The notes under the pieces are model-generated. The model ran no database searches. It was not told the origin of the DNA and worked only from the letters and a program-made list of their open reading frames with translations. A stretch of 64,000 nt of DNA from Candidatus Heimdallarchaeota archaeon (GTDB lineage Archaea > Asgardarchaeota > Heimdallarchaeia > Heimdallarchaeales > Heimdallarchaeaceae): the NCBI GenBank assembly GCA_018238545.1, contig JABCTC010000015.1:15825-79824 (forward strand), written 5' to 3'. Below are positions 8,338 to 19,792 of this stretch, piece after piece (position 1 is the stretch's first letter; the number at the start of each line of letters is the position of its first letter). The translations under genes were made by a program, and so were the position numbers.

Positions 8338-8610
8338 AGTGATTAATTATTCATTAAAATTAATAAGATTATTCCTCTTTAACTTTTATTCCAATATCTT
8401 CTGAGTTTTCTTTGTTAGTTGGTGTTTATCTTTATAGCAGAATGTCTATAACACTTAAGTTCTATCTATAACTATCTGCGGGTATTTTTAATTATAATCT
8501 ATTCATTAAGCTCACCCCAACTGTTATATGTATGACTTTAAACTTTCGATAATTAAGGATAATGTGTTATTACGCATAATAATTGTCGGACAAATTTTAT
8601 TGTGATTGCT

Positions 8611-9042
8611 ATGATTACAAAGAAAAAAGTTATGAAAAAAATCGTTAAGTCTGTTTGGGTTTTTAACTGGTTTAATTCATGTGGTTTCATTGAGATAATT
8701 CCCGTTGTAGGTTCTAGGTGGGATATGGAACGTTTTGGTTTAGTTGCTGTGAATTCTCCAAGGAAAGCAGATGCCCTGTTCATAGCGGGATATCAAACAC
8801 CCAAATCAATGAAAAGAGCTCAACAAATATATGAGCAAATGCCAAGTCCGAAATTTGTTTTTGCGCTTGGATGCTGTACCATGACTGGAGGAATGTATTG
8901 GGATTCTTATAACACAGTTAAACGAATAGATGATTATCTTCCCGTTTTTATGTATATTCCTGGTTGTCCCCCAAGACCTGAAGCAATATTCGATGCAGTA
9001 CACAAAGTTGTCGTGCATGTTGATGAGTTGCCAGATGAGTGA
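8611..9042 (+). CDS. NuoB/MbxJ-like Fe-S small subunit
   Basis: RWDMERFG, SPRKAD, PK.V.A.GCC, YIPGCPPRPE. Confidence 0.9.
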   Translation: MITKKKVMKKIVKSVWVFNWFNSCGFIEIIPVVGSRWDMERFGLVAVNSPRKADALFIAGYQTPKSMKRAQQIYEQMPSPKFVFALGCCTMTGGMYWDSYNTVKRIDDYLPVFMYIPGCPPRPEAIFDAVHKVVVHVDELPDE

Positions 9043-9587
9043 TGAAGATGAGTAGAAAAGATAAACAAAATAAGAATAAATCTATTGAAGAAAAACTAAT
9101 TAAAGATTTAAGCTTAAAATTAGATACCACAGTTCATTATCAAAAGGAACGAAGGTTATGGATATCAATTAATCCTGATCAAATCGTAGAAACATGTTCT
9201 AAAGCGTATGAATTGGGCTTTGAACACCTTTCAACAATATCTGTTACAGATTGGTTAGATGAAGGTAAGCATGAAGTGACGTACCATCTTTGGTCTTATT
9301 CTCATAATCATCTACTAACAATAAAAACAAAAATAGATAGAAAGAAACCTATAATTTCCTCAATTAGCTCAATTTGGGGTGGCAATGCTGAAACCTGTGA
9401 ACGTGAGTGTCATGAACTATTTGGCGTAAAATTTGAAGGTAATCCTAATCTTACTCCATTGTTTCTTGAAGATTGGGAAGGTCCCCCTCCATTTTTGAAA
9501 GATTTCAATTGGCGAGAATTTGTCAAGAAGGATATGTATGACCAAAATAATCCGAGAGAAAAAGTATACTTTGAGGTGAAAAAATGA
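9039..9587 (+). CDS. NuoC/MbxK-like subunit
   Basis: ERE..ELFGVKFEG.P motif. Confidence 0.88.
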   Translation: MMKMSRKDKQNKNKSIEEKLIKDLSLKLDTTVHYQKERRLWISINPDQIVETCSKAYELGFEHLSTISVTDWLDEGKHEVTYHLWSYSHNHLLTIKTKIDRKKPIISSISSIWGGNAETCERECHELFGVKFEGNPNLTPLFLEDWEGPPPFLKDFNWREFVKKDMYDQNNPREKVYFEVKK

Positions 9588-10702
9588 CAAAAATAAAAGA
9601 ACATAATGTGAACAGCGACTTCGCAATGAACTTCGGTCCAGCTCATCCAGGATCAGGAAATTTTGCAATAAAAGTTGAGATGCGTGGGGAACGAGTACTT
9701 AAAGCAACTGCTGATCCAGGATACCTTCACCGTGGGTTTGAAAAAATGATGGAATACCGGGAACCAATGCAAAATGCAGTTATGTCGGATCGAGTATGTG
9801 TTTTGGAACCATTACAATGGAATTTGGTTCATGCTGAAGCAGTTGATTATCTTATGGGTTATGAAATACCTGATAGAGCTAAACATATCCGTGTAATTCT
9901 TGCAGAGCTTTCGAGAATTCAGTCCCATTTCATTTGGTATGCTGTATTATCCTTAGGAACAGGTTTCATGACTGGTTTTAATGTCGCTATAGGATATAGA
10001 GATTATATCTTAGATGTTCTCAACCTAATCACTGGTGGGAGAGTCTATCCTGCAGGTTACATTTGTCCTGGAGGAGTTAGAAAAGATTTTCCAGAGAAAG
10101 CTGAAAATAAAATATTGGAACTACTTCCAAAAATTGACTACATGAGAAAATTCATGCTAAAAGAAAATCCAGCGTGGTTAGCACGTTTCAAGGATGTTGG
10201 CATATTAACAAAAAGGGAGGCTATTAAGTTTGGGGCAACTGGTCCAGTATTACGTGGAAGTGGAGTTGCATCAGATGTGAGGCGTGATGATCCATATGAA
10301 ATATATGATGAACTAGAATTCGAAATTCCAGTTATGGATGAAGGAGATGCTTATGCTCGTTTCAATGTTGGTATGCAGGAAATAGAAGAGAGTATGAAAA
10401 TAATTACTCAAGCTATTGACCGAATACCAAAAGGGGAAGTTAAAACACCAAACCTCAAACCTACAGTAAAATTTCAACAAGCTAAAGGAGAGATCTACAT
10501 ACGTAATGAACTATCTCGAGGAGAAGGTGCTTTTTATATGGTTGCAACAGGTCAGAAAACACCTTATAGGGTGAAAATACGTGGACCCTCTTTTACCCAT
10601 ATGATTCCAATAGTTGAACATCTATTAACAGATGTAGATTATGCAGATGTACCTGCAATTTATTGGAGCTTATATCAGTGTCCCGCAGATGTAGATAGGT
10701 GA
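9584..10702 (+). CDS. NuoD/MbxL-like large subunit without a complete NiFe site
   Basis: FGPAHP, GYLHRGFEK, DRVCVLE (CxxE), C-terminal CPADVDR (CxxD). Confidence 0.88.
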   Translation: MTKIKEHNVNSDFAMNFGPAHPGSGNFAIKVEMRGERVLKATADPGYLHRGFEKMMEYREPMQNAVMSDRVCVLEPLQWNLVHAEAVDYLMGYEIPDRAKHIRVILAELSRIQSHFIWYAVLSLGTGFMTGFNVAIGYRDYILDVLNLITGGRVYPAGYICPGGVRKDFPEKAENKILELLPKIDYMRKFMLKENPAWLARFKDVGILTKREAIKFGATGPVLRGSGVASDVRRDDPYEIYDELEFEIPVMDEGDAYARFNVGMQEIEESMKIITQAIDRIPKGEVKTPNLKPTVKFQQAKGEIYIRNELSRGEGAFYMVATGQKTPYRVKIRGPSFTHMIPIVEHLLTDVDYADVPAIYWSLYQCPADVDR

Positions 10703-10703
10703 G

Positions 10704-11087
10704 ATGATAAAAATGAAATTAGGTATAATTAAAGAAGTATTCAAAAATGTCTTCACAAAACCAATGACAGTACTTTTTCCTTTTGAAAAAATTGAGATTC
10801 CAGAGCGGAATAGAGGCGAACATAGTTTTGACATTGATACATGCATTTCATGTGGAGCTTGCGCTAGAATCTGCCCGAATCTAGCAATAGAAATGATAGA
10901 CGCGCCCCAGGAATTAAAAAAGAAGTATCCCAAAACCTATCCTCAGATAGATATAGGTAAATGTTGTTTTTGCGCATTATGTCAAGATGTCTGTCCAAAA
11001 GGGTCAATTAAACTTACAACTAATGTTTTCTTAGCGACCTTTGATAAAGATGACACAGTAAGAAGTCCTATGTCATGGAATAAGTGA
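10704..11087 (+). CDS. NuoI/MbxN-like 2x[4Fe-4S] subunit
   Basis: Two CxxCxxCxxxCP motifs; T..FPFE. Confidence 0.9.
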   Translation: MIKMKLGIIKEVFKNVFTKPMTVLFPFEKIEIPERNRGEHSFDIDTCISCGACARICPNLAIEMIDAPQELKKKYPKTYPQIDIGKCCFCALCQDVCPKGSIKLTTNVFLATFDKDDTVRSPMSWNK

Positions 11088-11255: not shown

Positions 11256-11720
11256 GTGACAAAAATGAGTTATGGTATAGATAGAAGACCAAGTGGCGGT
11301 CGAGGGAAAGGTGGAGGTCGAAGACCAGGTGGAGGTCGAGGACAAGGTGGGAAAATTGGTATGGGATCAGGAGGTTGGTGTGTCTGCACAGCTTGTGGGC
11401 AAAGAGCTGCTCACCAGCGAGGTGAAACCTGTAATCAGAAGCAATGTTCATCTTGTGGGGAGAGGATGATAAGAGATATAGGAACTCAAGGTTTCCCTCA
11501 ACAAGTAAACTCTAGAACTTCAAATCCTATGCAGAGTAGTTTTCAAAGATTCAAAATCCCGATTGTTGATGAAGGTAAATGCGTTGGATGTTCTTTGTGT
11601 TTAAGTAGTTGCAGATATAATGCAATACACATGGTAAATGGTAAAGCACATATTCAAGAAAACCTGTGCCAGGGGTGTAAGGCTTGTATTCCCTCATGTC
11701 CTCATGGAGCTATATCCTAA
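11256..11720 (+). CDS. Ferredoxin-domain protein with Gly/Arg-rich N-terminus and Cys-rich zinc-binding region
   Basis: GGGR repeats, CxCxxC...C...CxxC, two 4Fe-4S motifs. Confidence 0.75.
   Translation: MTKMSYGIDRRPSGGRGKGGGRRPGGGRGQGGKIGMGSGGWCVCTACGQRAAHQRGETCNQKQCSSCGERMIRDIGTQGFPQQVNSRTSNPMQSSFQRFKIPIVDEGKCVGCSLCLSSCRYNAIHMVNGKAHIQENLCQGCKACIPSCPHGAIS
11282..11352 (+). repeat. Imperfect 18-bp coding tandem repeat (ggtggaggtcgaagacca-like)
   Basis: About 3.5 copies encoding GGGRxx. Confidence 0.7.
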
Positions 11721-11743: not shown

Positions 11744-13175
11744 ATGATGCTTATTTGTCTTCTTGTCTTATTAGACAAAGCTAGGTAAATGTCGTGCTTA
11801 GAGGTCATGATATAGGGCGAAGACACTCTATACTCACTCTGAGTGGATACATCACGTATCCTCCTACCCCGTTCACCTTGCGTTTAGGCAAGGCTTTCGG
11901 ATCGCTTTTTATCAGAATATTATATGCAGCATTAACATCAGCATTGATCAAGTGGCCTTGAGCTGAACGAAACAGCCCTCGGTGGATTCTTTTCCCTTTG
12001 TAATTTTTCCGCTTTTTAGGGAACTCATTATCCAGGAAACTGCTTTTAGAGGTGTATTGTTCAGGAATCGTCTCAACTTTTATCCCTCGTTCTGTTCCTT
12101 TGTATTTTAGCAAATCGATGATTTTCAAGAATGGGATGGTGACGAACATCTGGGTGGTTTTTTTCCAAAAATGCATTCCTTGTTTCCATAGCTCATTATA
12201 CCCTATCACCACTTCATGTAGCCCTCGTTCCACCCACAAGTCAACCAGATACTTGGTTAATTTGTGGATAGCATCGTTTAGCTTTTTTCTCCACTTTTCT
12301 TTGAGCTTATAGTAAGCTGGACCATATTTTAGACGATTATTCGATTGCAATTGTTTTCTCTGTTGCTGACTATACTGTAGTTGTAGTTTCTTCTGTTCTT
12401 TCAGATAATACTGTGTAATTGATTTTATCCCTTTCCCTGCGTCTTTGATAACAATCGGTCTTCCTCCGAGGTTATCCACGAAAGCGGCAAGGTTGTCCAT
12501 CCCTAAATCCACAGCTCCTTTTCTGGTCAACTTTTTCCTGAGATTGGGTATACTCTTGAGATAAACAAGTTCAAGGGTATAGTGAGTTCTTCGGGGAATG
12601 ATTCTTACTTCTCTTAACTCTGCTTGAGCTGTTAGCCTTGTCTTGTAAGTGTACTTCACTTTCTTAGGTAACACTAACCATCCATTGACAATACGTGCTT
12701 GTTGATTGGTGAAGATAGCTACTACTTCCCCATCCTTCTTTTTGTAGTTAGGTGGATTAGGCATGGCAAAAAACAATGTTGGGTTCTTCTTCCACTCTTG
12801 TTTCGCTCGGAAAAAGCTCTTCCAGGTTCTAGAAAGGAGTTTGAGAGTTTGTTGGGCAACATGAGCAGGAAGGACTCTGTAGCATTCTTCCTGTTTCAAC
12901 TGTCTGTCAAGATCATAGTAAAAGAGAAGTTTACTTGTTTGCTTCAAGGAGGTTTTTATCAGAAAATTTGCCCAATTATAGAGATTTTTTGCTTGATGAC
13001 AGATTCTGCTCAGTGCTGGATGATACTCCACTTCTATACGCTCTGCTCGCAGTACCTTTGCCATCTTTCGTTGACCCAGAGTTCATTATAAAAACTCCCG
13101 TAATATGCGCTTTAAACACTCCATTTAAACTGATACAATTGTAGCGAATATGACTACAAGACAAAAATTTATTAT
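11744..13175 (-). mobile_element. Non-autonomous TnpB-only IS, copy A
   Basis: Ends defined by alignment to the copy at 61043-62462; right end ...catcat; no transposase gene. Confidence 0.75.
11805..13064 (-). CDS. tnpB: RNA-guided endonuclease TnpB
   Basis: AVDLG (RuvC-I), IGYN..WKQ, EQYTSK, NADVNAAYNI (RuvC-III). Confidence 0.93.
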   Translation of the reverse strand: MAKVLRAERIEVEYHPALSRICHQAKNLYNWANFLIKTSLKQTSKLLFYYDLDRQLKQEECYRVLPAHVAQQTLKLLSRTWKSFFRAKQEWKKNPTLFFAMPNPPNYKKKDGEVVAIFTNQQARIVNGWLVLPKKVKYTYKTRLTAQAELREVRIIPRRTHYTLELVYLKSIPNLRKKLTRKGAVDLGMDNLAAFVDNLGGRPIVIKDAGKGIKSITQYYLKEQKKLQLQYSQQQRKQLQSNNRLKYGPAYYKLKEKWRKKLNDAIHKLTKYLVDLWVERGLHEVVIGYNELWKQGMHFWKKTTQMFVTIPFLKIIDLLKYKGTERGIKVETIPEQYTSKSSFLDNEFPKKRKNYKGKRIHRGLFRSAQGHLINADVNAAYNILIKSDPKALPKRKVNGVGGYVMYPLRVSIECLRPIS

Positions 13176-13596: not shown

Positions 13597-13860
13597 ATGA
13601 TTAGCATAAGGGAAGAAAAGAAAAGAAATCCAATAAAATTACAGAATAGATACCCTCATCTTGGAAGAGCACTAGATCTTTTAGATTCTCAAACAATTCG
13701 CGATAGAATGATGGGTTATGCTCTCGTTACAACTTGTTTTCATCTTTGCCCAGAAGAAATGAGAGAATTTATACACGAAAAGTGGAAGAATGAAGAGCTA
13801 GTAAAGGGGAGGATAAAAAAAGAATTTATTGAATATTGTATCAAAAAATTTGATGTTTAA
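13597..13860 (+). CDS. Small hypothetical protein
   Basis: 87-aa ORF preceded by GGGAG. Confidence 0.55.
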   Translation: MISIREEKKRNPIKLQNRYPHLGRALDLLDSQTIRDRMMGYALVTTCFHLCPEEMREFIHEKWKNEELVKGRIKKEFIEYCIKKFDV

Positions 13861-13861
13861 T

Positions 13862-14641
13862 TTAATTTTTACTTACATTTTCTGCGACAGGAAAGTATGT
13901 GGGATAGATTAACTTGGCGAAATTTTGATATATTTCTACACTATAATCTTTTGTTTCAATAAGAGATTCTAGTTTTACTATTTCTGATTCAGTATATCCT
14001 TTCATATCTGGAAATGATTCAGGATCACCATAATCTAATATCTTGACTACAAATTCATCTAGTTTAGTCAGCTCAAGATAGGATTCAATTATCAGATGAA
14101 TATGTGGAGTTAGTTTCTCAATAATCTCTTCTTCCTTCACAGAATTTGTAATTCTAATTACTGAAAGAATAGCAGCTCTCTTTGTTATGTAATCTCGAGC
14201 ATATGCTACATTTTTGAGCGGATATAAAACATCTACATCATCTAAGTATCCAATAGCTCTTATGGCGGCATATTGTAAATCATAACCACTTTCTTCGAGC
14301 ATTTTGATGAGATAAGGTTTAGAATCATAATGTTTTAGTTTACCTAATACCTCTAAGATCGTTAGTTTAGTAGATAAAGAACTTCTTTCAACGAGATCAT
14401 GTAGATGAGTTAAAACCTCTTTCTTTGATTCTGGGTATTTGGAAGTAAGAAATAGTATAGAAGAAGCTGCAGCATTTCTCACATTCCATTCCGAATCTTC
14501 TAACAGCGGTAGTAGTTTTTTTACTGTTTTTGCTTTACCCTTAATCTGTTGAAATAATGCAAAGTGAACTCTGTCTAATGGAATCTCACTTTGTAATTTT
14601 TTACCCATGCCTAATCCTTTAAGGAAATTCTCAACACTCAT
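13862..14641 (-). CDS. HEAT-repeat protein
   Basis: LLEDSEWNVRNAAA, LQYAAIRAIG, ITKRAAI repeats. Confidence 0.85.
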   Translation of the reverse strand: MSVENFLKGLGMGKKLQSEIPLDRVHFALFQQIKGKAKTVKKLLPLLEDSEWNVRNAAASSILFLTSKYPESKKEVLTHLHDLVERSSLSTKLTILEVLGKLKHYDSKPYLIKMLEESGYDLQYAAIRAIGYLDDVDVLYPLKNVAYARDYITKRAAILSVIRITNSVKEEEIIEKLTPHIHLIIESYLELTKLDEFVVKILDYGDPESFPDMKGYTESEIVKLESLIETKDYSVEIYQNFAKLIYPTYFPVAENVSKN

Positions 14642-16218
14642 AATTCAAACAGTCCTTCTTTTATTAGATACGCAATTGCACCTCTTTGTGGTTGGGTCAA
14701 TTTGCGTAAATAAGTATAATCAACATTGCTCACATCAACCTTATCTTCAGATTCTTCATCTAAATCAAATTTGTAAGCGTCTTTTCTTTTAGTTACTTGA
14801 ACAGCTCTTGTTACAACCGGTAAATTATACGGAGACAGAGGTTGATGTTTTGTTTTATGAACAGCGAATAGTGTTGAAACGTGAATTCCACCAATCTTCT
14901 TGAATACAATTACATCAGCAAATGCAGGAAGAATCGTCTTGAAATCATCCCTGTACAGTGCCATATGGTTATGAAGTATAACAAGTTGATCTATTCCTAT
15001 TCCATAATCATTAACTTCAAAAACATATACTTTCTTTTGATCAACTTTGACATAGCCTTTGGATTCTATTCTTGGTTTTTCATCTTGTAGCTGACCGAAA
15101 GTTGAAAATTTCTTTCTATATACCTTTCTAGTATATTCATCAATGATTTTCCAACCATATGCATAAACAGACCAGATATCTGTCCATCTACTTCGTGTAG
15201 AGTGCCATTTCTCAACAACACCTTCAGAATGCAGATTTTTATTTACCGCAAGCAAATCCTTTACTTCGTCCCAAGTGAATTCTTCCAACAGATTAATATC
15301 TGATTTATAATTGAATAGTTTGCTGAAAAGCTCTTTTTCATTTTCAACTTTGGTTTCAAGCCTTCTTATTACAGCTAAACTAAATTCACCAATGGGAGGA
15401 GCTAAAAATGATTTCAACTCATTTGGTAATTTTGGTTCTTTATCCTCAACACTTTTCTTGAACTCATAATCGCCTGATTTTATAAGATATTCAATGCCTT
15501 TTGCTTGAACATAATGTGCAAAACCTTCATCAATTAGCTCATGCAGATGCTTTTTCCTTGATACTTTTGCTCTTTCAGATAGATAGTTTATAGCTTCAAT
15601 TGAAAAATTATTGAATAGAGTATATTTTCGTGCAATTTCAGGAGGGATGTAAAAATCTTCTACACCAGCTTCGGTGAACAATCTAATTACACCAATTAAA
15701 TCTTGGAAATATTGCCATGCCCAAGCATGTCCATCAGATGATTCTTTGTTTAATTGAAAAACATTGTTTGTCATTAATTCCTTCAGAACAGTGTCTATCT
15801 GATAAAGTCTTGAGAGTATTTGTGGTGAGTTTGACTCAGTTTTTTCATTCATGTAAGCATGAGCAAAGGCATGAATTAGCATTACTCTAAGAGTGAATTC
15901 CTGTTCTTTGTTAAGTTCATAAGAAGGAGCTGAAAGATAAATCAAAGTAGGTAGAGAATTATAGATTGTTTCTTTTCCAACTGGCAAGAAATCGTTTATA
16001 CGAGCAGACTTAAGATGAGTTATTTGTTCAGCCGTCAAAATAGCTTGTGGGGTACCAGTTATTTCAATAACTCTATTTACCGAAACATGCAAATCTGGGT
16101 TAACAAAAAGCAATGCACGATAGTTTTCAGGAGTTTCGCCTACGAGAGCTTTGAAATCGTCTCTTGCCAAATTATAAACTCGGACTATCTCATCAAATTC
16201 AGTTTCTGTTTTAAGCAT
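14638..16218 (-). CDS. Zincin/SpoVR-like hypothetical protein (HxxxH lacking the catalytic Glu)
   Basis: LIHAFAHAY plus downstream IDEGFAHY. Confidence 0.55.
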   Translation of the reverse strand: MLKTETEFDEIVRVYNLARDDFKALVGETPENYRALLFVNPDLHVSVNRVIEITGTPQAILTAEQITHLKSARINDFLPVGKETIYNSLPTLIYLSAPSYELNKEQEFTLRVMLIHAFAHAYMNEKTESNSPQILSRLYQIDTVLKELMTNNVFQLNKESSDGHAWAWQYFQDLIGVIRLFTEAGVEDFYIPPEIARKYTLFNNFSIEAINYLSERAKVSRKKHLHELIDEGFAHYVQAKGIEYLIKSGDYEFKKSVEDKEPKLPNELKSFLAPPIGEFSLAVIRRLETKVENEKELFSKLFNYKSDINLLEEFTWDEVKDLLAVNKNLHSEGVVEKWHSTRSRWTDIWSVYAYGWKIIDEYTRKVYRKKFSTFGQLQDEKPRIESKGYVKVDQKKVYVFEVNDYGIGIDQLVILHNHMALYRDDFKTILPAFADVIVFKKIGGIHVSTLFAVHKTKHQPLSPYNLPVVTRAVQVTKRKDAYKFDLDEESEDKVDVSNVDYTYLRKLTQPQRGAIAYLIKEGLFEL

Positions 16219-17617
16219 GCATCATACTCTCCCTTAAAATTTGTTCTCCCAGCTTCTTTATTTGAGCAGGATCGATGAGAATGGGTCGTGTTATACCCTT
16301 CAACATCTGTTTTGTGTGAATGAACAACTCCTTATTACGTAGAGATTCAGTTCCCATAAGGAAATAAGAAATGTTCCAATTTCTTGTTCTATCATTTTTA
16401 AGATGTTTGAAAATCCCATTGAGTTGAATCAAACAATCTATTGTTTCTGGTTTCGTTTTGGTTTGAATTTCAGAGAAGTATTTCTGCAACTCCTCATTTT
16501 TCCGATAATTATATGGAAAAGTAGGAACATTGGGCATACCGTCTGTAACTATTGTGAAGTATACATCAATATCTTTATCCACACGTTGTTTTTTTGCGTG
16601 ATCAATAGCAGTCTGAACGGCTTGAACCATGTAAGTCTTACCCTTTGCGTCAGCTGTTAGAAGGTAATTTTCCATTTTACTGTCATCATCAACGACAGTT
16701 GGGTTCTTTCTAACAGGAACTACGGCAAGTTTGAACATGTCAAATCTTTTCCTTTTTCGACGATTCAGTATTTTAAAGTAATAGTATAGACTTAAACTAG
16801 TTAAGAGGGCCCCATCTAGCCTTGACATTTTACCTTCAAAAACAGCCTTCTTCATAGATTGACTCATATCTACAATAAGATACACAAGTGATCGTCTATC
16901 TTTTTTCACACGAATTATATCTTCCTGTTTAACAGAAGTTGGTGGTATATTTTGAGAACTCAAAATTGCGCTTTTATAAGTCTCTCTAAGTCTTATTGTG
17001 CCCCTAGGTCTCTTTTGTACTTCATCGATAGGTGCTACTGATATTTGTTTTAAAAGAAAACGACCAAGAATCTTTCCAAGCAAATCCATAACACTTTCTC
17101 TAGAAATACGCTTCTTCCTACCAAAGGCATCGGTTATTTCAATGTCTATTATCTCTTGTAATTGGTTGAGTTTTTCTGCTAACTGATCTAAATCAACAGA
17201 TCCTTCATATTTAAGATTACGAAGCAGATCTTGTATATACTTGAGAATTTCTTCTAGAGTTTGTAGCTCATTACGATTTACTCTTTCCAATACATCTGGT
17301 AGAATCCTATCACCCATAAACCGTAGAATTTTGAGTTCGTTTAGCAAGCGTTCTTCTTCTGGAGCTGTCAAATATGTTGTCATTATCTTCTGAACAATAT
17401 TCTCCATCGCCACAGCATTTTTTGCAGCAAGAGAAAGAACTGCTCCTTCACGAGAACTTCTTCCTAAATGAGGATTACGCCATAACCTAAGTACTTGAGC
17501 AGCATCTTCAAAATCTAAGATGAATTCAACGTCTCCATATGCTTGAATAGGATCAGTGAATTCTTCTGCTGTTATGAAATTTATTCTATGGGGCATGTTA
17601 TTATCTCCAATGGGCAC
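16211..17617 (-). CDS. VWA domain protein
   Basis: MIDAS motif LIVDMSQSM, GKT, IVTDGMPN; preceded by a I.LR.T segment typical of AAA-associated VWA proteins. Confidence 0.87.
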   Translation of the reverse strand: MPIGDNNMPHRINFITAEEFTDPIQAYGDVEFILDFEDAAQVLRLWRNPHLGRSSREGAVLSLAAKNAVAMENIVQKIMTTYLTAPEEERLLNELKILRFMGDRILPDVLERVNRNELQTLEEILKYIQDLLRNLKYEGSVDLDQLAEKLNQLQEIIDIEITDAFGRKKRISRESVMDLLGKILGRFLLKQISVAPIDEVQKRPRGTIRLRETYKSAILSSQNIPPTSVKQEDIIRVKKDRRSLVYLIVDMSQSMKKAVFEGKMSRLDGALLTSLSLYYYFKILNRRKRKRFDMFKLAVVPVRKNPTVVDDDSKMENYLLTADAKGKTYMVQAVQTAIDHAKKQRVDKDIDVYFTIVTDGMPNVPTFPYNYRKNEELQKYFSEIQTKTKPETIDCLIQLNGIFKHLKNDRTRNWNISYFLMGTESLRNKELFIHTKQMLKGITRPILIDPAQIKKLGEQILRESMMHA

Positions 17618-17630
17618 TAGAAATGCCTGT

Positions 17631-19178
17631 TTAGATGTAATCTACTCTCAACAATTGCTCGTAAGATGGTCTAAGACTCTCAATAATTGTTGCTCGAATT
17701 TTGTCTTTGTATTTATCTAAACCTTCAAACTTTACAATCAAATCTGCTAATTCATTATCACTTAATGCCTTCATCTTTGAAATATCTTCAGAGATATCTT
17801 GTACACTTATAGAAACTTCCGATTCTTTTATAGATGTTCTTAGTAGAATCTTGATTTGTTGAAGAGCATCATTGAGCATCGAAACTGGTATATCATAAGC
17901 ATTCATTGTACTACGCAGCTTCTCTAAAGTTATGACATTGACATCTGTAGCTGTTTCTCTAGCTTGCAAAAGCACTGTTTCACCGATGATATTGTTCATA
18001 GTACGTAAATCGATGTGAGGATTTCTTTGTGGATCATGAATTTCATCAAGACCAGAATAGAAATCGGTACGTGCCATACGACTTTCTGAACGAATGTCCT
18101 TTGATTTTAGGTTGCTAGGTAAAGAATTATTTCCAAGATACGCAAGAAAATCTACTGCAAGTCTGCTAACAAAATCTGTAGTGTCTTTTTCCAATTCATG
18201 TAATTGAATAATGGAAGGATTTGCTGTGATTTTTTTACTTGAAAGAACAATCTGCTCTTCAAACATATCGCGTATAATTTGTTCTCTACTTTCAACAGAA
18301 CGTGCGGGCCACAGTACTTCAGGAATACGATTGATAATAGGTTGACTTTCTTCTCCAAAGACGGTTAATGGCGCGTTAGATGTGAAGATTACAGCTCCAT
18401 CAATGTAAACTGGTTCTCCTTGGATATTGTATTTAATACCCATTGGTTCTTCGAGAAAACCCATCAATGATTCTAATAGTGTTAAGGGGAGCCTCTGAAT
18501 TTCATTTACAACTAATATACCATGGGAAAGAACGCCTACCTTATGCGAAGTAGCGGCATAAGTAGTCTGAGTTTCTTTGCCAAACAACTCTTCTAAGTTT
18601 TCGACACCAGCAAGTAACATATAGAGACTTTCAGGGTCATTTCTTGGATCAAGTTGCGCTCTTCGGACTAGTGTTTTTGTTGCTTCAAGTTTTCCTAGCC
18701 TACTTACTACTTCTTTTGGAGAAATTTCAAGTATACTATTTGTATTATCTAATTGTACAGGACTACCTTCATCAGACAAAATACCTTCGATTTTTTGTCT
18801 GCAGTAAGGACATAGAGATTGCATAACTCTAATTCCAGCAAAAGGATTTGATGGGAAGTTATTGATAATATCTACAATGTATCCAGCGTCTTCTAGGAAT
18901 GGACAACCACCGATGTGATATTTGTTGTTGTTGATTTCTCTAACGATATGGTCAAGCAACACCCTTGCAAAAAGAGTTTTGGCTTCACCTGTTGGACCTG
19001 TGATTAAGACTTTACCACCAACAGCTAATTTATCCATAACAAGTTTTTTTCCAATTTCATTACCACGAACAGTAACGTCTTTAGAAACTCTATCACGGAA
19101 CTCTGGATTCATCAATATTGAACGGACAGAATAACCAGAATAACCATCCTTCATTATATTTCCAATTGAAATTGTCAT
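17631..19178 (-). CDS. AAA+ ATPase (MoxR/Mg-chelatase/PrkA-related)
   Basis: Walker A GPTGEAKT, GCPF...CPYC insert, Walker B LVVNE, sensor-1 FTSN, arginine finger IINR. Confidence 0.82.
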   Translation of the reverse strand: MTISIGNIMKDGYSGYSVRSILMNPEFRDRVSKDVTVRGNEIGKKLVMDKLAVGGKVLITGPTGEAKTLFARVLLDHIVREINNNKYHIGGCPFLEDAGYIVDIINNFPSNPFAGIRVMQSLCPYCRQKIEGILSDEGSPVQLDNTNSILEISPKEVVSRLGKLEATKTLVRRAQLDPRNDPESLYMLLAGVENLEELFGKETQTTYAATSHKVGVLSHGILVVNEIQRLPLTLLESLMGFLEEPMGIKYNIQGEPVYIDGAVIFTSNAPLTVFGEESQPIINRIPEVLWPARSVESREQIIRDMFEEQIVLSSKKITANPSIIQLHELEKDTTDFVSRLAVDFLAYLGNNSLPSNLKSKDIRSESRMARTDFYSGLDEIHDPQRNPHIDLRTMNNIIGETVLLQARETATDVNVITLEKLRSTMNAYDIPVSMLNDALQQIKILLRTSIKESEVSISVQDISEDISKMKALSDNELADLIVKFEGLDKYKDKIRATIIESLRPSYEQLLRVDYI

Positions 19179-19195
19179 TGTATTTTCCTCTTATT

Positions 19196-19792
19196 TTATT
19201 GATTATTTTCTTCTTCTGAAGGAAATTGAACTTTAATAGGTTGTATTTTTTCTAATAATGCTTCTTTTTCTTCCCAAGGTTTAATGTAACCCATATGGAT
19301 TACTTTTTTCATCCATTTCAGAGATTCAATTAATGAATCTACGTCTGGAACCTCAAAAAGGTTCCATATACGATCTGTTAAACGTATGAGAGACATATTT
19401 TCTATTAATTCTCCTCTAGTCAAAGCTCCTTGTAAGTCAGTATTGTAAGCACAGACTGCTATAGGAAGATCGTCTACTTCCTCGTCCCAAATAATTTTTT
19501 CCCAGAAATAATTACGCTCATGTTTAATCATTTCTTCTTTCGTTGCATCAATAAGATAGAGAATTCCTTCAAAAGGGATAAATTGTTTAGGTGCGAATTT
19601 TAGCTTTTCAGCATATGGAAGTTCATTCAAACAGCTATCAATGATAAATTCATTTAAAGAAGTATTAGAACGCATTAGCAAAACACGGTTGCGAGTTGCT
19701 GGAAGGTTGTTTCCCATAACCAATACCGATGTTTCAGGATAGCCAAGCTTTCTACGAATAGTTTGAAATGTTCGTTGGATGAAGTTAGTCAT
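19196..19792 (-). CDS. Degenerate Arf-like small GTPase
   Basis: GILYLIDAT, PIAVCAYNTDL, L.L..L.DR.W, SL.W align to the Arf C-terminal half; G1, G3 and G4 motifs are degenerate. Confidence 0.75.
   Translation of the reverse strand: MTNFIQRTFQTIRRKLGYPETSVLVMGNNLPATRNRVLLMRSNTSLNEFIIDSCLNELPYAEKLKFAPKQFIPFEGILYLIDATKEEMIKHERNYFWEKIIWDEEVDDLPIAVCAYNTDLQGALTRGELIENMSLIRLTDRIWNLFEVPDVDSLIESLKWMKKVIHMGYIKPWEEKEALLEKIQPIKVQFPSEEENNQ

Follow-up and report, generated by a model that had tools for sequence, protein, structure and literature searches.

A five-gene operon of Heimdallarchaeia that probably descends from the PrkA-YeaH-SpoVR module and includes an Arf-derived pseudo-GTPase

Within a 64,000-nucleotide stretch of a Heimdallarchaeia genome (Candidatus Heimdallarchaeota archaeon, contig JABCTC010000015.1; the whole stretch is called the window below), five co-oriented open reading frames (ORFs) span positions 13862-19792 of the minus strand in the ORF list. 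They form an operon that we consider rather likely to be a highly divergent form, confined to Heimdallarchaeia, of the PrkA(YeaG)-YeaH-SpoVR(YcgB) module, to which a HEAT-repeat protein of its own and, in most lineages, a nucleotide-blind Arf-fold protein have been added. We favour this reading because the fourth protein matches only SpoVR in a fold search, the AAA+ ATPase has a 31-residue insert spacing in common with PrkA and joins PrkA in a tree (support 93/79, a grouping with ChlI-like proteins not being rejected), and the genes are ordered like prkA-yeaH-spoVR. Heimdall-group Asgard archaea are the closest relatives of eukaryotes. The public records for the five genes read mostly 'hypothetical protein', and the present analysis provides annotations for them. 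No published description of the operon was found in the literature that we covered, which was incomplete, and the searched passages of two papers on Asgard Arf proteins (10.1101/2024.02.28.582541; PMC11914678) mention neither operons nor pseudo-GTPases. The first-pass annotation of this DNA had proposed a new system; we regard the operon as a variant of the PrkA-YeaH-SpoVR module rather than something categorically new.

In the direction of transcription, the operon encodes an Arf-derived pseudo-GTPase (pseudo-Arf; 19196-19792, 198 aa), a PrkA-like AAA+ ATPase (17631-19178, 515 aa), a von Willebrand factor A (vWA) protein with a metal ion-dependent adhesion site (MIDAS; 16211-17617, 468 aa as called) that is YeaH-like in position and layout, a SpoVR/YcgB-like protein (14638-16218, 526 aa) and a HEAT protein (13862-14641, 259 aa), all on the minus strand. 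The junctions (a 17-nt gap, a 13-nt gap, an 8-nt overlap and a 4-nt overlap, in this order) are exactly those first described for the ORFs as called. The true start of the vWA gene is probably the ATG at 17596, 21 nt later than called, giving 461 aa and an ATPase-vWA gap of 34 nt, because the orthologs have 461 aa and start with MPHRI, and GGAGA lies upstream. The initial AAA+/VWA and HEAT assignments are borne out by Pfam, with Sigma54_activat/AAA_5 matches in the ATPase, VWA_2 (E 0.002) in the vWA protein and HEAT_2 (E 4e-13) in the HEAT protein. Each of the five genes is single-copy in the genome of the window, and a scan of the operon for sigma-70 promoters and terminators gave scores below shuffled levels.

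Gene order was counted in 48 fetched loci, adjacency being scored where both genes are present; the loci come from related genomes, and the adjacency and presence counts are thus not independent samples or events. The vWA gene is next to the ATPase gene in 44/44 cases, the SpoVR-like gene next to the vWA gene in 41/41, the HEAT gene next to the SpoVR-like gene in 40/40, and the Arf-like gene next to the ATPase gene in 40/41. This order persists to about 51% ATPase identity while the flanking genes change, and because adjacency is nearly universal over that range, it is not due to chance. Neighbouring genes (NUDIX, threonine-dehydratase-like) and a convergent 87-aa ORF lie outside the unit, their conservation stopping at the family, and the fetched loci show no client gene conserved beside the operon. 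Of the linkage in related genomes on which the original proposal depended, the part concerning the four-gene core (ATPase, vWA, SpoVR-like and HEAT genes) stands, these genes being neighbours in every fetched locus counted, whereas the Arf-like gene is relocated or not found in some genomes. The close relatives belong to Heimdallarchaeota, and the two complete Ca. Heimdallarchaeum genomes are among them. With the ATPase profile, matches were obtained in 55 of the 82 genomes of the class: families f1-f4 (f1 being Heimdallarchaeaceae and f4 Kariarchaeaceae, going by the names of the matching proteins) are nearly complete, f7 has it in 10/12 genomes, f5 in 0/22 and f6 in 0/2, and the same profile search found no ortholog in 317 Asgard genomes outside the class, where there was one weak non-ortholog match. 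HEAT orthologs occur in 53/82 class genomes, and both the HEAT and the Arf-like genes follow the ATPase pattern across the class, which supports an extended module. A profile of the 526-aa family retrieved only 20 proteins from 1.84 billion representatives, and the four that were traced to contigs all lie in the same gene cluster. In the deepest-branching copies, whose ATPases have 35-46% identity and whose records bear the names Hodarchaeota, Promethearchaeota or Heimdallarchaeota, the ATPase gene is transcribed divergently from vWA-SpoVR-HEAT or is about 45 kb distant.

The likeness to SpoVR shows in the predicted fold of the 526-aa protein. Its AlphaFold2 model (predicted local distance difference test, pLDDT, 79.5; predicted template modelling score, pTM, 0.82) matched SpoVR clusters only in the Atlas fold search (template modelling score, TM, 0.54/0.58; 379 aligned positions; residues 7-523), predicted models standing on both sides of this match and no SpoVR structure being in the PDB set searched. 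The top PDB rows hold zincins, among them M1, M32 and M4, at middling individual scores (Z up to 8.8), with a gluzincin-like fold covering residues 2-347, and Foldseek of the model against PDB returned nothing significant. These SpoVR and zincin matches agree with the SpoVR/zincin-like call made at first pass. The sole significant viral fold match is a 617-aa protein, of the same length as the annotated SpoVR of phage phiLo, the correspondence being one of length only. HAFAH (116-120) and E231 form a metal-ligand triad in which the catalytic Glu is missing, and HAFAH together with EG (231-232) parallels the invariant H...H and EG of SpoVR; true SpoVR likewise has H...H...E without a catalytic Glu. 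Across the family, position 117 is A, S, L, V or T in all members and none has the catalytic Glu, and the H116-H120-E231 triad is complete in 12 of 25 diverse members. An active protease was therefore rejected as unlikely for the 526-aa protein, given the lack of a catalytic Glu, and a conserved peptidase activity of the family is, judging from these motifs, unlikely because just 12 of the 25 members retain all three ligands. The fold, the HxxxH and the downstream E of the window copy are shared with gluzincins (M1, M32, M4), whereas the catalytic Glu is replaced (Ala, Ser or Leu) in the SpoVR-like members and the ligands are not conserved; in SpoVR itself the ligands are invariant, in contrast to the archaeal family, half of whose members have lost them. 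No canonical SpoVR scored above cut-off in 200 Asgard genomes, which we count in favour of a diverged SpoVR. A complex prediction for the SpoVR-like and HEAT proteins scored 0.00, which is evidence neither for nor against an interaction. An SpoVR EG-helix-like stretch was also seen near the C-terminus of proteins of about 1300 aa in two small Asgard families (L108:6247-10158 of Ca. Borrarchaeum; L049-L052), which possibly carry another zincin-like domain.

The ATPase is a clade-7 AAA+ protein with Walker A GPTGEAKT and Walker B VVNE, the Walker B Asp being replaced by Asn in 39/39 members. In the family alignment K67 is kept in 38/39 (one gap) and N225/E226, R284 and R392 in 39/39, which means that the Walker A Lys, the Walker B Glu and the finger-position and sensor-2 arginines do not vary. 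The NE of Walker B and an N-terminal TxxxLxxxGY motif are presumably reminiscent of Rv0958. After Walker A there is a Cys-bearing insert, CP..ED...LCPxC, with a spacing from CP..ED to LCP of 31 in 30/39 members and in 6/10 PrkA (Bacillota and Thermus phages), the pattern being unparsed in the four proteobacterial PrkA of the ten; the spacing is 11 or less in ChlI-like controls, and MoxR has no such insert. Profile alignment with hhalign gave 96.8% (E 2e-10) against PrkA and, on a par with it, 97.3% against an archaeal ChlI-like family, a tie that is tipped to PrkA by the shared spacing of 31. In a tree sampling PrkA, ChlI-like and MoxR sequences, the family joins PrkA at 93/79 (unstarred), where long branches meet. 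The best phage matches of the ATPase are weak (E 0.03-0.05); they are PrkA 'serine kinase' genes within yeaH-spoVR-prkA clusters and were counted for the PrkA assignment. Foldseek of the ATPase model against viral models gave nothing significant. The PrkA structures 9xip, 9xiq and 9xir appear neither in the fold lists of the ATPase nor in its hidden Markov model search, and the fold library may lack these entries. Three families had been named at the outset, MoxR, the Rv0958/Rv0959 type and PrkA-YeaH-SpoVR; the last is now favoured, and MoxR proper is disfavoured, with only 43 aligned columns in hhalign and a separate clade in the tree.

The vWA protein has a long helical N-terminal part followed by the vWA domain, in which the MIDAS residues (D250-S252-S254, T328 and D359) are invariant in 33/33 members. 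AAA+, vWA and SpoVR genes in the same order make up the PrkA/YeaG-YeaH/YhbH-SpoVR/YcgB module of bacteria, haloarchaea and Thermus phages, with which the operon has in common the 31-residue insert after Walker A, the MIDAS, and an SpoVR fold with H..H..E minus the catalytic Glu. The archaeal ATPase differs from PrkA in its length of 515 aa, in having no match to the PrkA C-terminal domain and in its Walker B (VVNE versus EFxE), and the operon adds HEAT and pseudo-Arf genes to the module. In Thermus phages (phiYS40, L053:1459-7584; L054; L064) the yeaH-like, spoVR and prkA genes stand together, phiYS40 having an additional 616-aa hypothetical gene between spoVR and prkA.

Several observations weigh against descent from this module. 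By strict criteria the operon lies outside the Pfam families PrkA, DUF444 and SpoVR: AAA_PrkA (PF08298) has no match in the ATPase of the window and only sub-threshold matches in 2/39 members (best E 0.0013), the PrkA C-terminal domain (PF06798) has no Pfam match and the hhalign alignment ends at residue 309, DUF444 (PF04285) has no match in the vWA protein, and the 526-aa protein has no Pfam match at all, the SpoVR (PF04293) cut-off not being reached. The profile match of the 526-aa family to SpoVR is weak (13-15%), although it covers the EG helix, as is that of the vWA protein to YeaH (31%, E 5e-4, 174 columns), which sets in ahead of the vWA core. The approximately unbiased (AU) test did not reject a grouping of the ATPase with ChlI-like proteins (p-AU 0.196). 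To these may be added the hhalign score against the ChlI-like family, and the Atlas features, which point to AAA_5/Mg_chelatase and Rv0959-type clusters (those of the vWA protein include Rv0959-type vWA) and hint at an Rv0958-type affinity of the ATPase. Several of these points would also suit a MoxR-, chelatase- or Rv0958-type AAA+-vWA chaperone that matures or reactivates one client (a metalloenzyme or complex), with the zincin-fold, HEAT or pseudo-Arf protein as client or holder and the PrkA likeness reflecting shared clade-7 ancestry; the nearest solved folds of the ATPase model (pLDDT 79) are indeed RavA (Z 10.5) and ChlI/BchI (Z 9.3-9.9). The MoxR/RavA-ViaA, ChlI/ChlD, archaeal ChlI-like (NEQ401-type) and Rv0958/Rv0959 pairs all combine the same clade-7 fold with an adjacent MIDAS-vWA partner, whereas the operon has the long PrkA-type insert instead of the short ChlI-like one, a 515-aa ATPase and an SpoVR-fold third gene in the prkA-yeaH-spoVR position, which such a chaperone leaves unexplained, and has no conserved client enzyme nearby. 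We therefore consider the single-client chaperone unlikely, and regard the operon as probably descended from the PrkA-YeaH-SpoVR module and probably working in a similar way. A chelatase-like pair was noted in Ca. Borrarchaeum (L106:5969-9448; L109:3556-6509), where a ChlI-like ATPase with a CxxxC...CPxC insert stands beside an 806-aa AAA-vWA fusion; pairs of this type are widespread in archaea and some bacteria.

The pseudo-Arf has a clear ancestry from Arf/Arl: the Pfam Arf match (E 7e-7) is above cut-off and confined to the C-terminal half, and the best 60 PDB matches of the family profile are all Arf/Arl (Arl3 first at E 6e-11, with the Arf GTPase entries 8ouk and 8oul among them). The G1 region reads GNNLPATR, there is no DxxGQ, and NKxD has become YNTD; the G1 GxxxxGK(S/T), G3 DxxGQ and G4 NKxD motifs are absent and the switch/interswitch region is shortened in 30/30 aligned members, in accordance with the pseudo-Arf call of the first-pass annotation. 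Asgard ArfR/AArf and eukaryotic Arf/Arl share with it the C-terminal half (helices and the L..L.DR.W motif) and, in one pseudo-Arf family, the N-terminal amphipathic helix, whereas the pseudo-Arf has lost G1, G3 and G4, has a shortened switch and sits in an AAA+ operon. Conservation is strongest in the C-terminal half, as would suit a binding role; the invariant residues are W97, L124, L135, R137, D140 and W160. The Arf-like gene is on another contig or strand in six genomes (G010, G048, G051-G054), weak in G042 and not found in G040/G041, and no pseudo-Arf adjoins the deepest-branching copies in their locus neighbourhoods (L057/L059/L087/L088). It might then be a passenger, a neighbour that one clade inherited along with the four-gene core but that has no functional link to it, an idea compatible with the other readings. 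We find this unlikely: two different gene orders, whose flanks otherwise differ, both have the gene immediately upstream and in the same orientation, it is kept as a single-copy ortholog when relocated, and it was not found in 24 class genomes without the core (the lone match there is a canonical Arf), although this pattern of gene loss comes from few independent events. As the gene is retained in the genome when relocated and has no copy beside the deepest-branching loci, the pseudo-Arf is an accessory of the core and not established as an obligatory part. Among other candidates, the Arf match of G067, in family f5, belongs to the canonical type, and neither a 192-aa gene upstream of the ATPase (L086/L087/L090) nor 171-178-aa neighbours (L057/L059/L088) are Arf-like. 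In one genus of the Kariarchaeaceae group with a relocated pseudo-Arf, a conserved CxxC...CxxC protein of about 194 aa with a helical C-terminus is encoded upstream of the ATPase instead (L031:9623-10207; L033:9010-9591; L045:8203-9006).

The HEAT protein belongs to an operon-specific ortholog family, the genome also encoding some ten HEAT paralogs or more, and given its 259 aa and HEAT_2/PBS-lyase type, the proposed scaffold resembling a eukaryote-type coat solenoid is not established. In the deepest copies the gene is longer, 377-424 aa (L057:9511-10785; L059:7258-8391; L088:5894-7069), and the protein has one or two N-terminal hydrophobic segments (KD19 2.0-2.5), which suggests a membrane anchor where no pseudo-Arf adjoins. 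Asgard ArfR proteins need both an N-terminal amphipathic helix and GTP to bind membranes (10.1101/2024.02.28.582541; PMC11914678). A strong basic amphipathic N-terminal helix of the pseudo-Arf occurs only in the family of the window (hydrophobic moment, muH, 0.72-1.03 in its genus); it is weak in two other families (muH 0.24-0.61, the starts there being mechanical calls), and the Arf-fold membrane adaptor originally envisaged is therefore not established. A membrane-associated machine, in which a helix-anchored pseudo-Arf recruits the HEAT solenoid as a proto-coat-like pair serviced by the AAA+ motor, would suit the Arf/Arl ancestry, that helix, the ArfR precedent and the HEAT segments of the deepest copies, but is very unlikely given the weak helix elsewhere, a pseudo-Arf without a nucleotide switch to expose it, an Arf-like gene that is often relocated and never adjacent to the HEAT gene, and a short HEAT protein of common prokaryotic type.

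For the diverged PrkA-YeaH-SpoVR module, the following mechanism may be envisaged. The ATPase, as a clade-7 AAA+ protein whose Walker A, catalytic Glu and arginine finger are intact, would form a ring; the vWA MIDAS, by analogy with the MoxR and chelatase pairs, would grip a partner or client by an acidic residue and couple it to the ring; the zincin cleft of the SpoVR-like protein, which lacks the catalytic Glu and in half of the members the ligands, might bind peptide without cutting; and the HEAT protein and pseudo-Arf could be non-catalytic subunits with a binding function, choosing the clients or placing the machine. By analogy with Escherichia coli YeaG, which is required for starvation-induced non-specific bulk degradation of cytoplasmic proteins (PMC13684143), the machine would most likely spend ATP on remodelling cytoplasmic proteins or turning them over when the cell starves or meets stationary-phase stress. 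The bacterial prkA, yeaH and spoVR genes are co-fit in six bacteria (10.1101/072470). Against this picture, purified Bacillus anthracis PrkA alone had no kinase or protease activity (PMC13001217), and the biochemistry of PrkA is disputed. It is quite unlikely, in our estimate, that all five proteins form one complex in which the pseudo-Arf, or a membrane-anchored HEAT protein in the deep lineages, tethers a PrkA/YeaG-type bulk-turnover machine to the membrane; if true, an Arf-fold and alpha-solenoid pair would serve starvation proteolysis in the closest archaeal relatives of eukaryotes. The PrkA-YeaH-SpoVR module occurs widely, and its YeaG has newly been tied to starvation-induced bulk proteolysis. 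The diverged archaeal copy has kept the motor, the insert, the MIDAS and the zincin scaffold and has dispensed with a recognisable sequence of the PrkA C-terminal 'kinase' domain and with the SpoVR metal site, which argues for a remodelling machine over a kinase pathway and gives testable residues. The repurposing of an Arf paralog as a pseudo-GTPase in Heimdallarchaeia also means that Arf-like eukaryotic signature proteins are not all switches.

In the surroundings of the operon, the 87-aa ORF (13597-13860, plus strand) converges on the HEAT gene, the stops lying 1 nt apart, and is kept there within the genus; it has a paralog on contig C29 and no family match. A 419-aa TnpB/Cas12f-like ORF (11805-13064, minus strand), of the IS200/IS605 type by sequence features, lies 800 nt downstream of the operon, and fragments of its relatives adjoin the operon in two other loci (L014 and L028). 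Further away, a compact cluster (8602-11087, plus strand) resembles group 4 NiFe-hydrogenase/complex I subunits (NuoB-, C-, D- and I-like); after it comes a ferredoxin-like ORF (11256-11720) whose N-terminus is rich in Gly and Arg.

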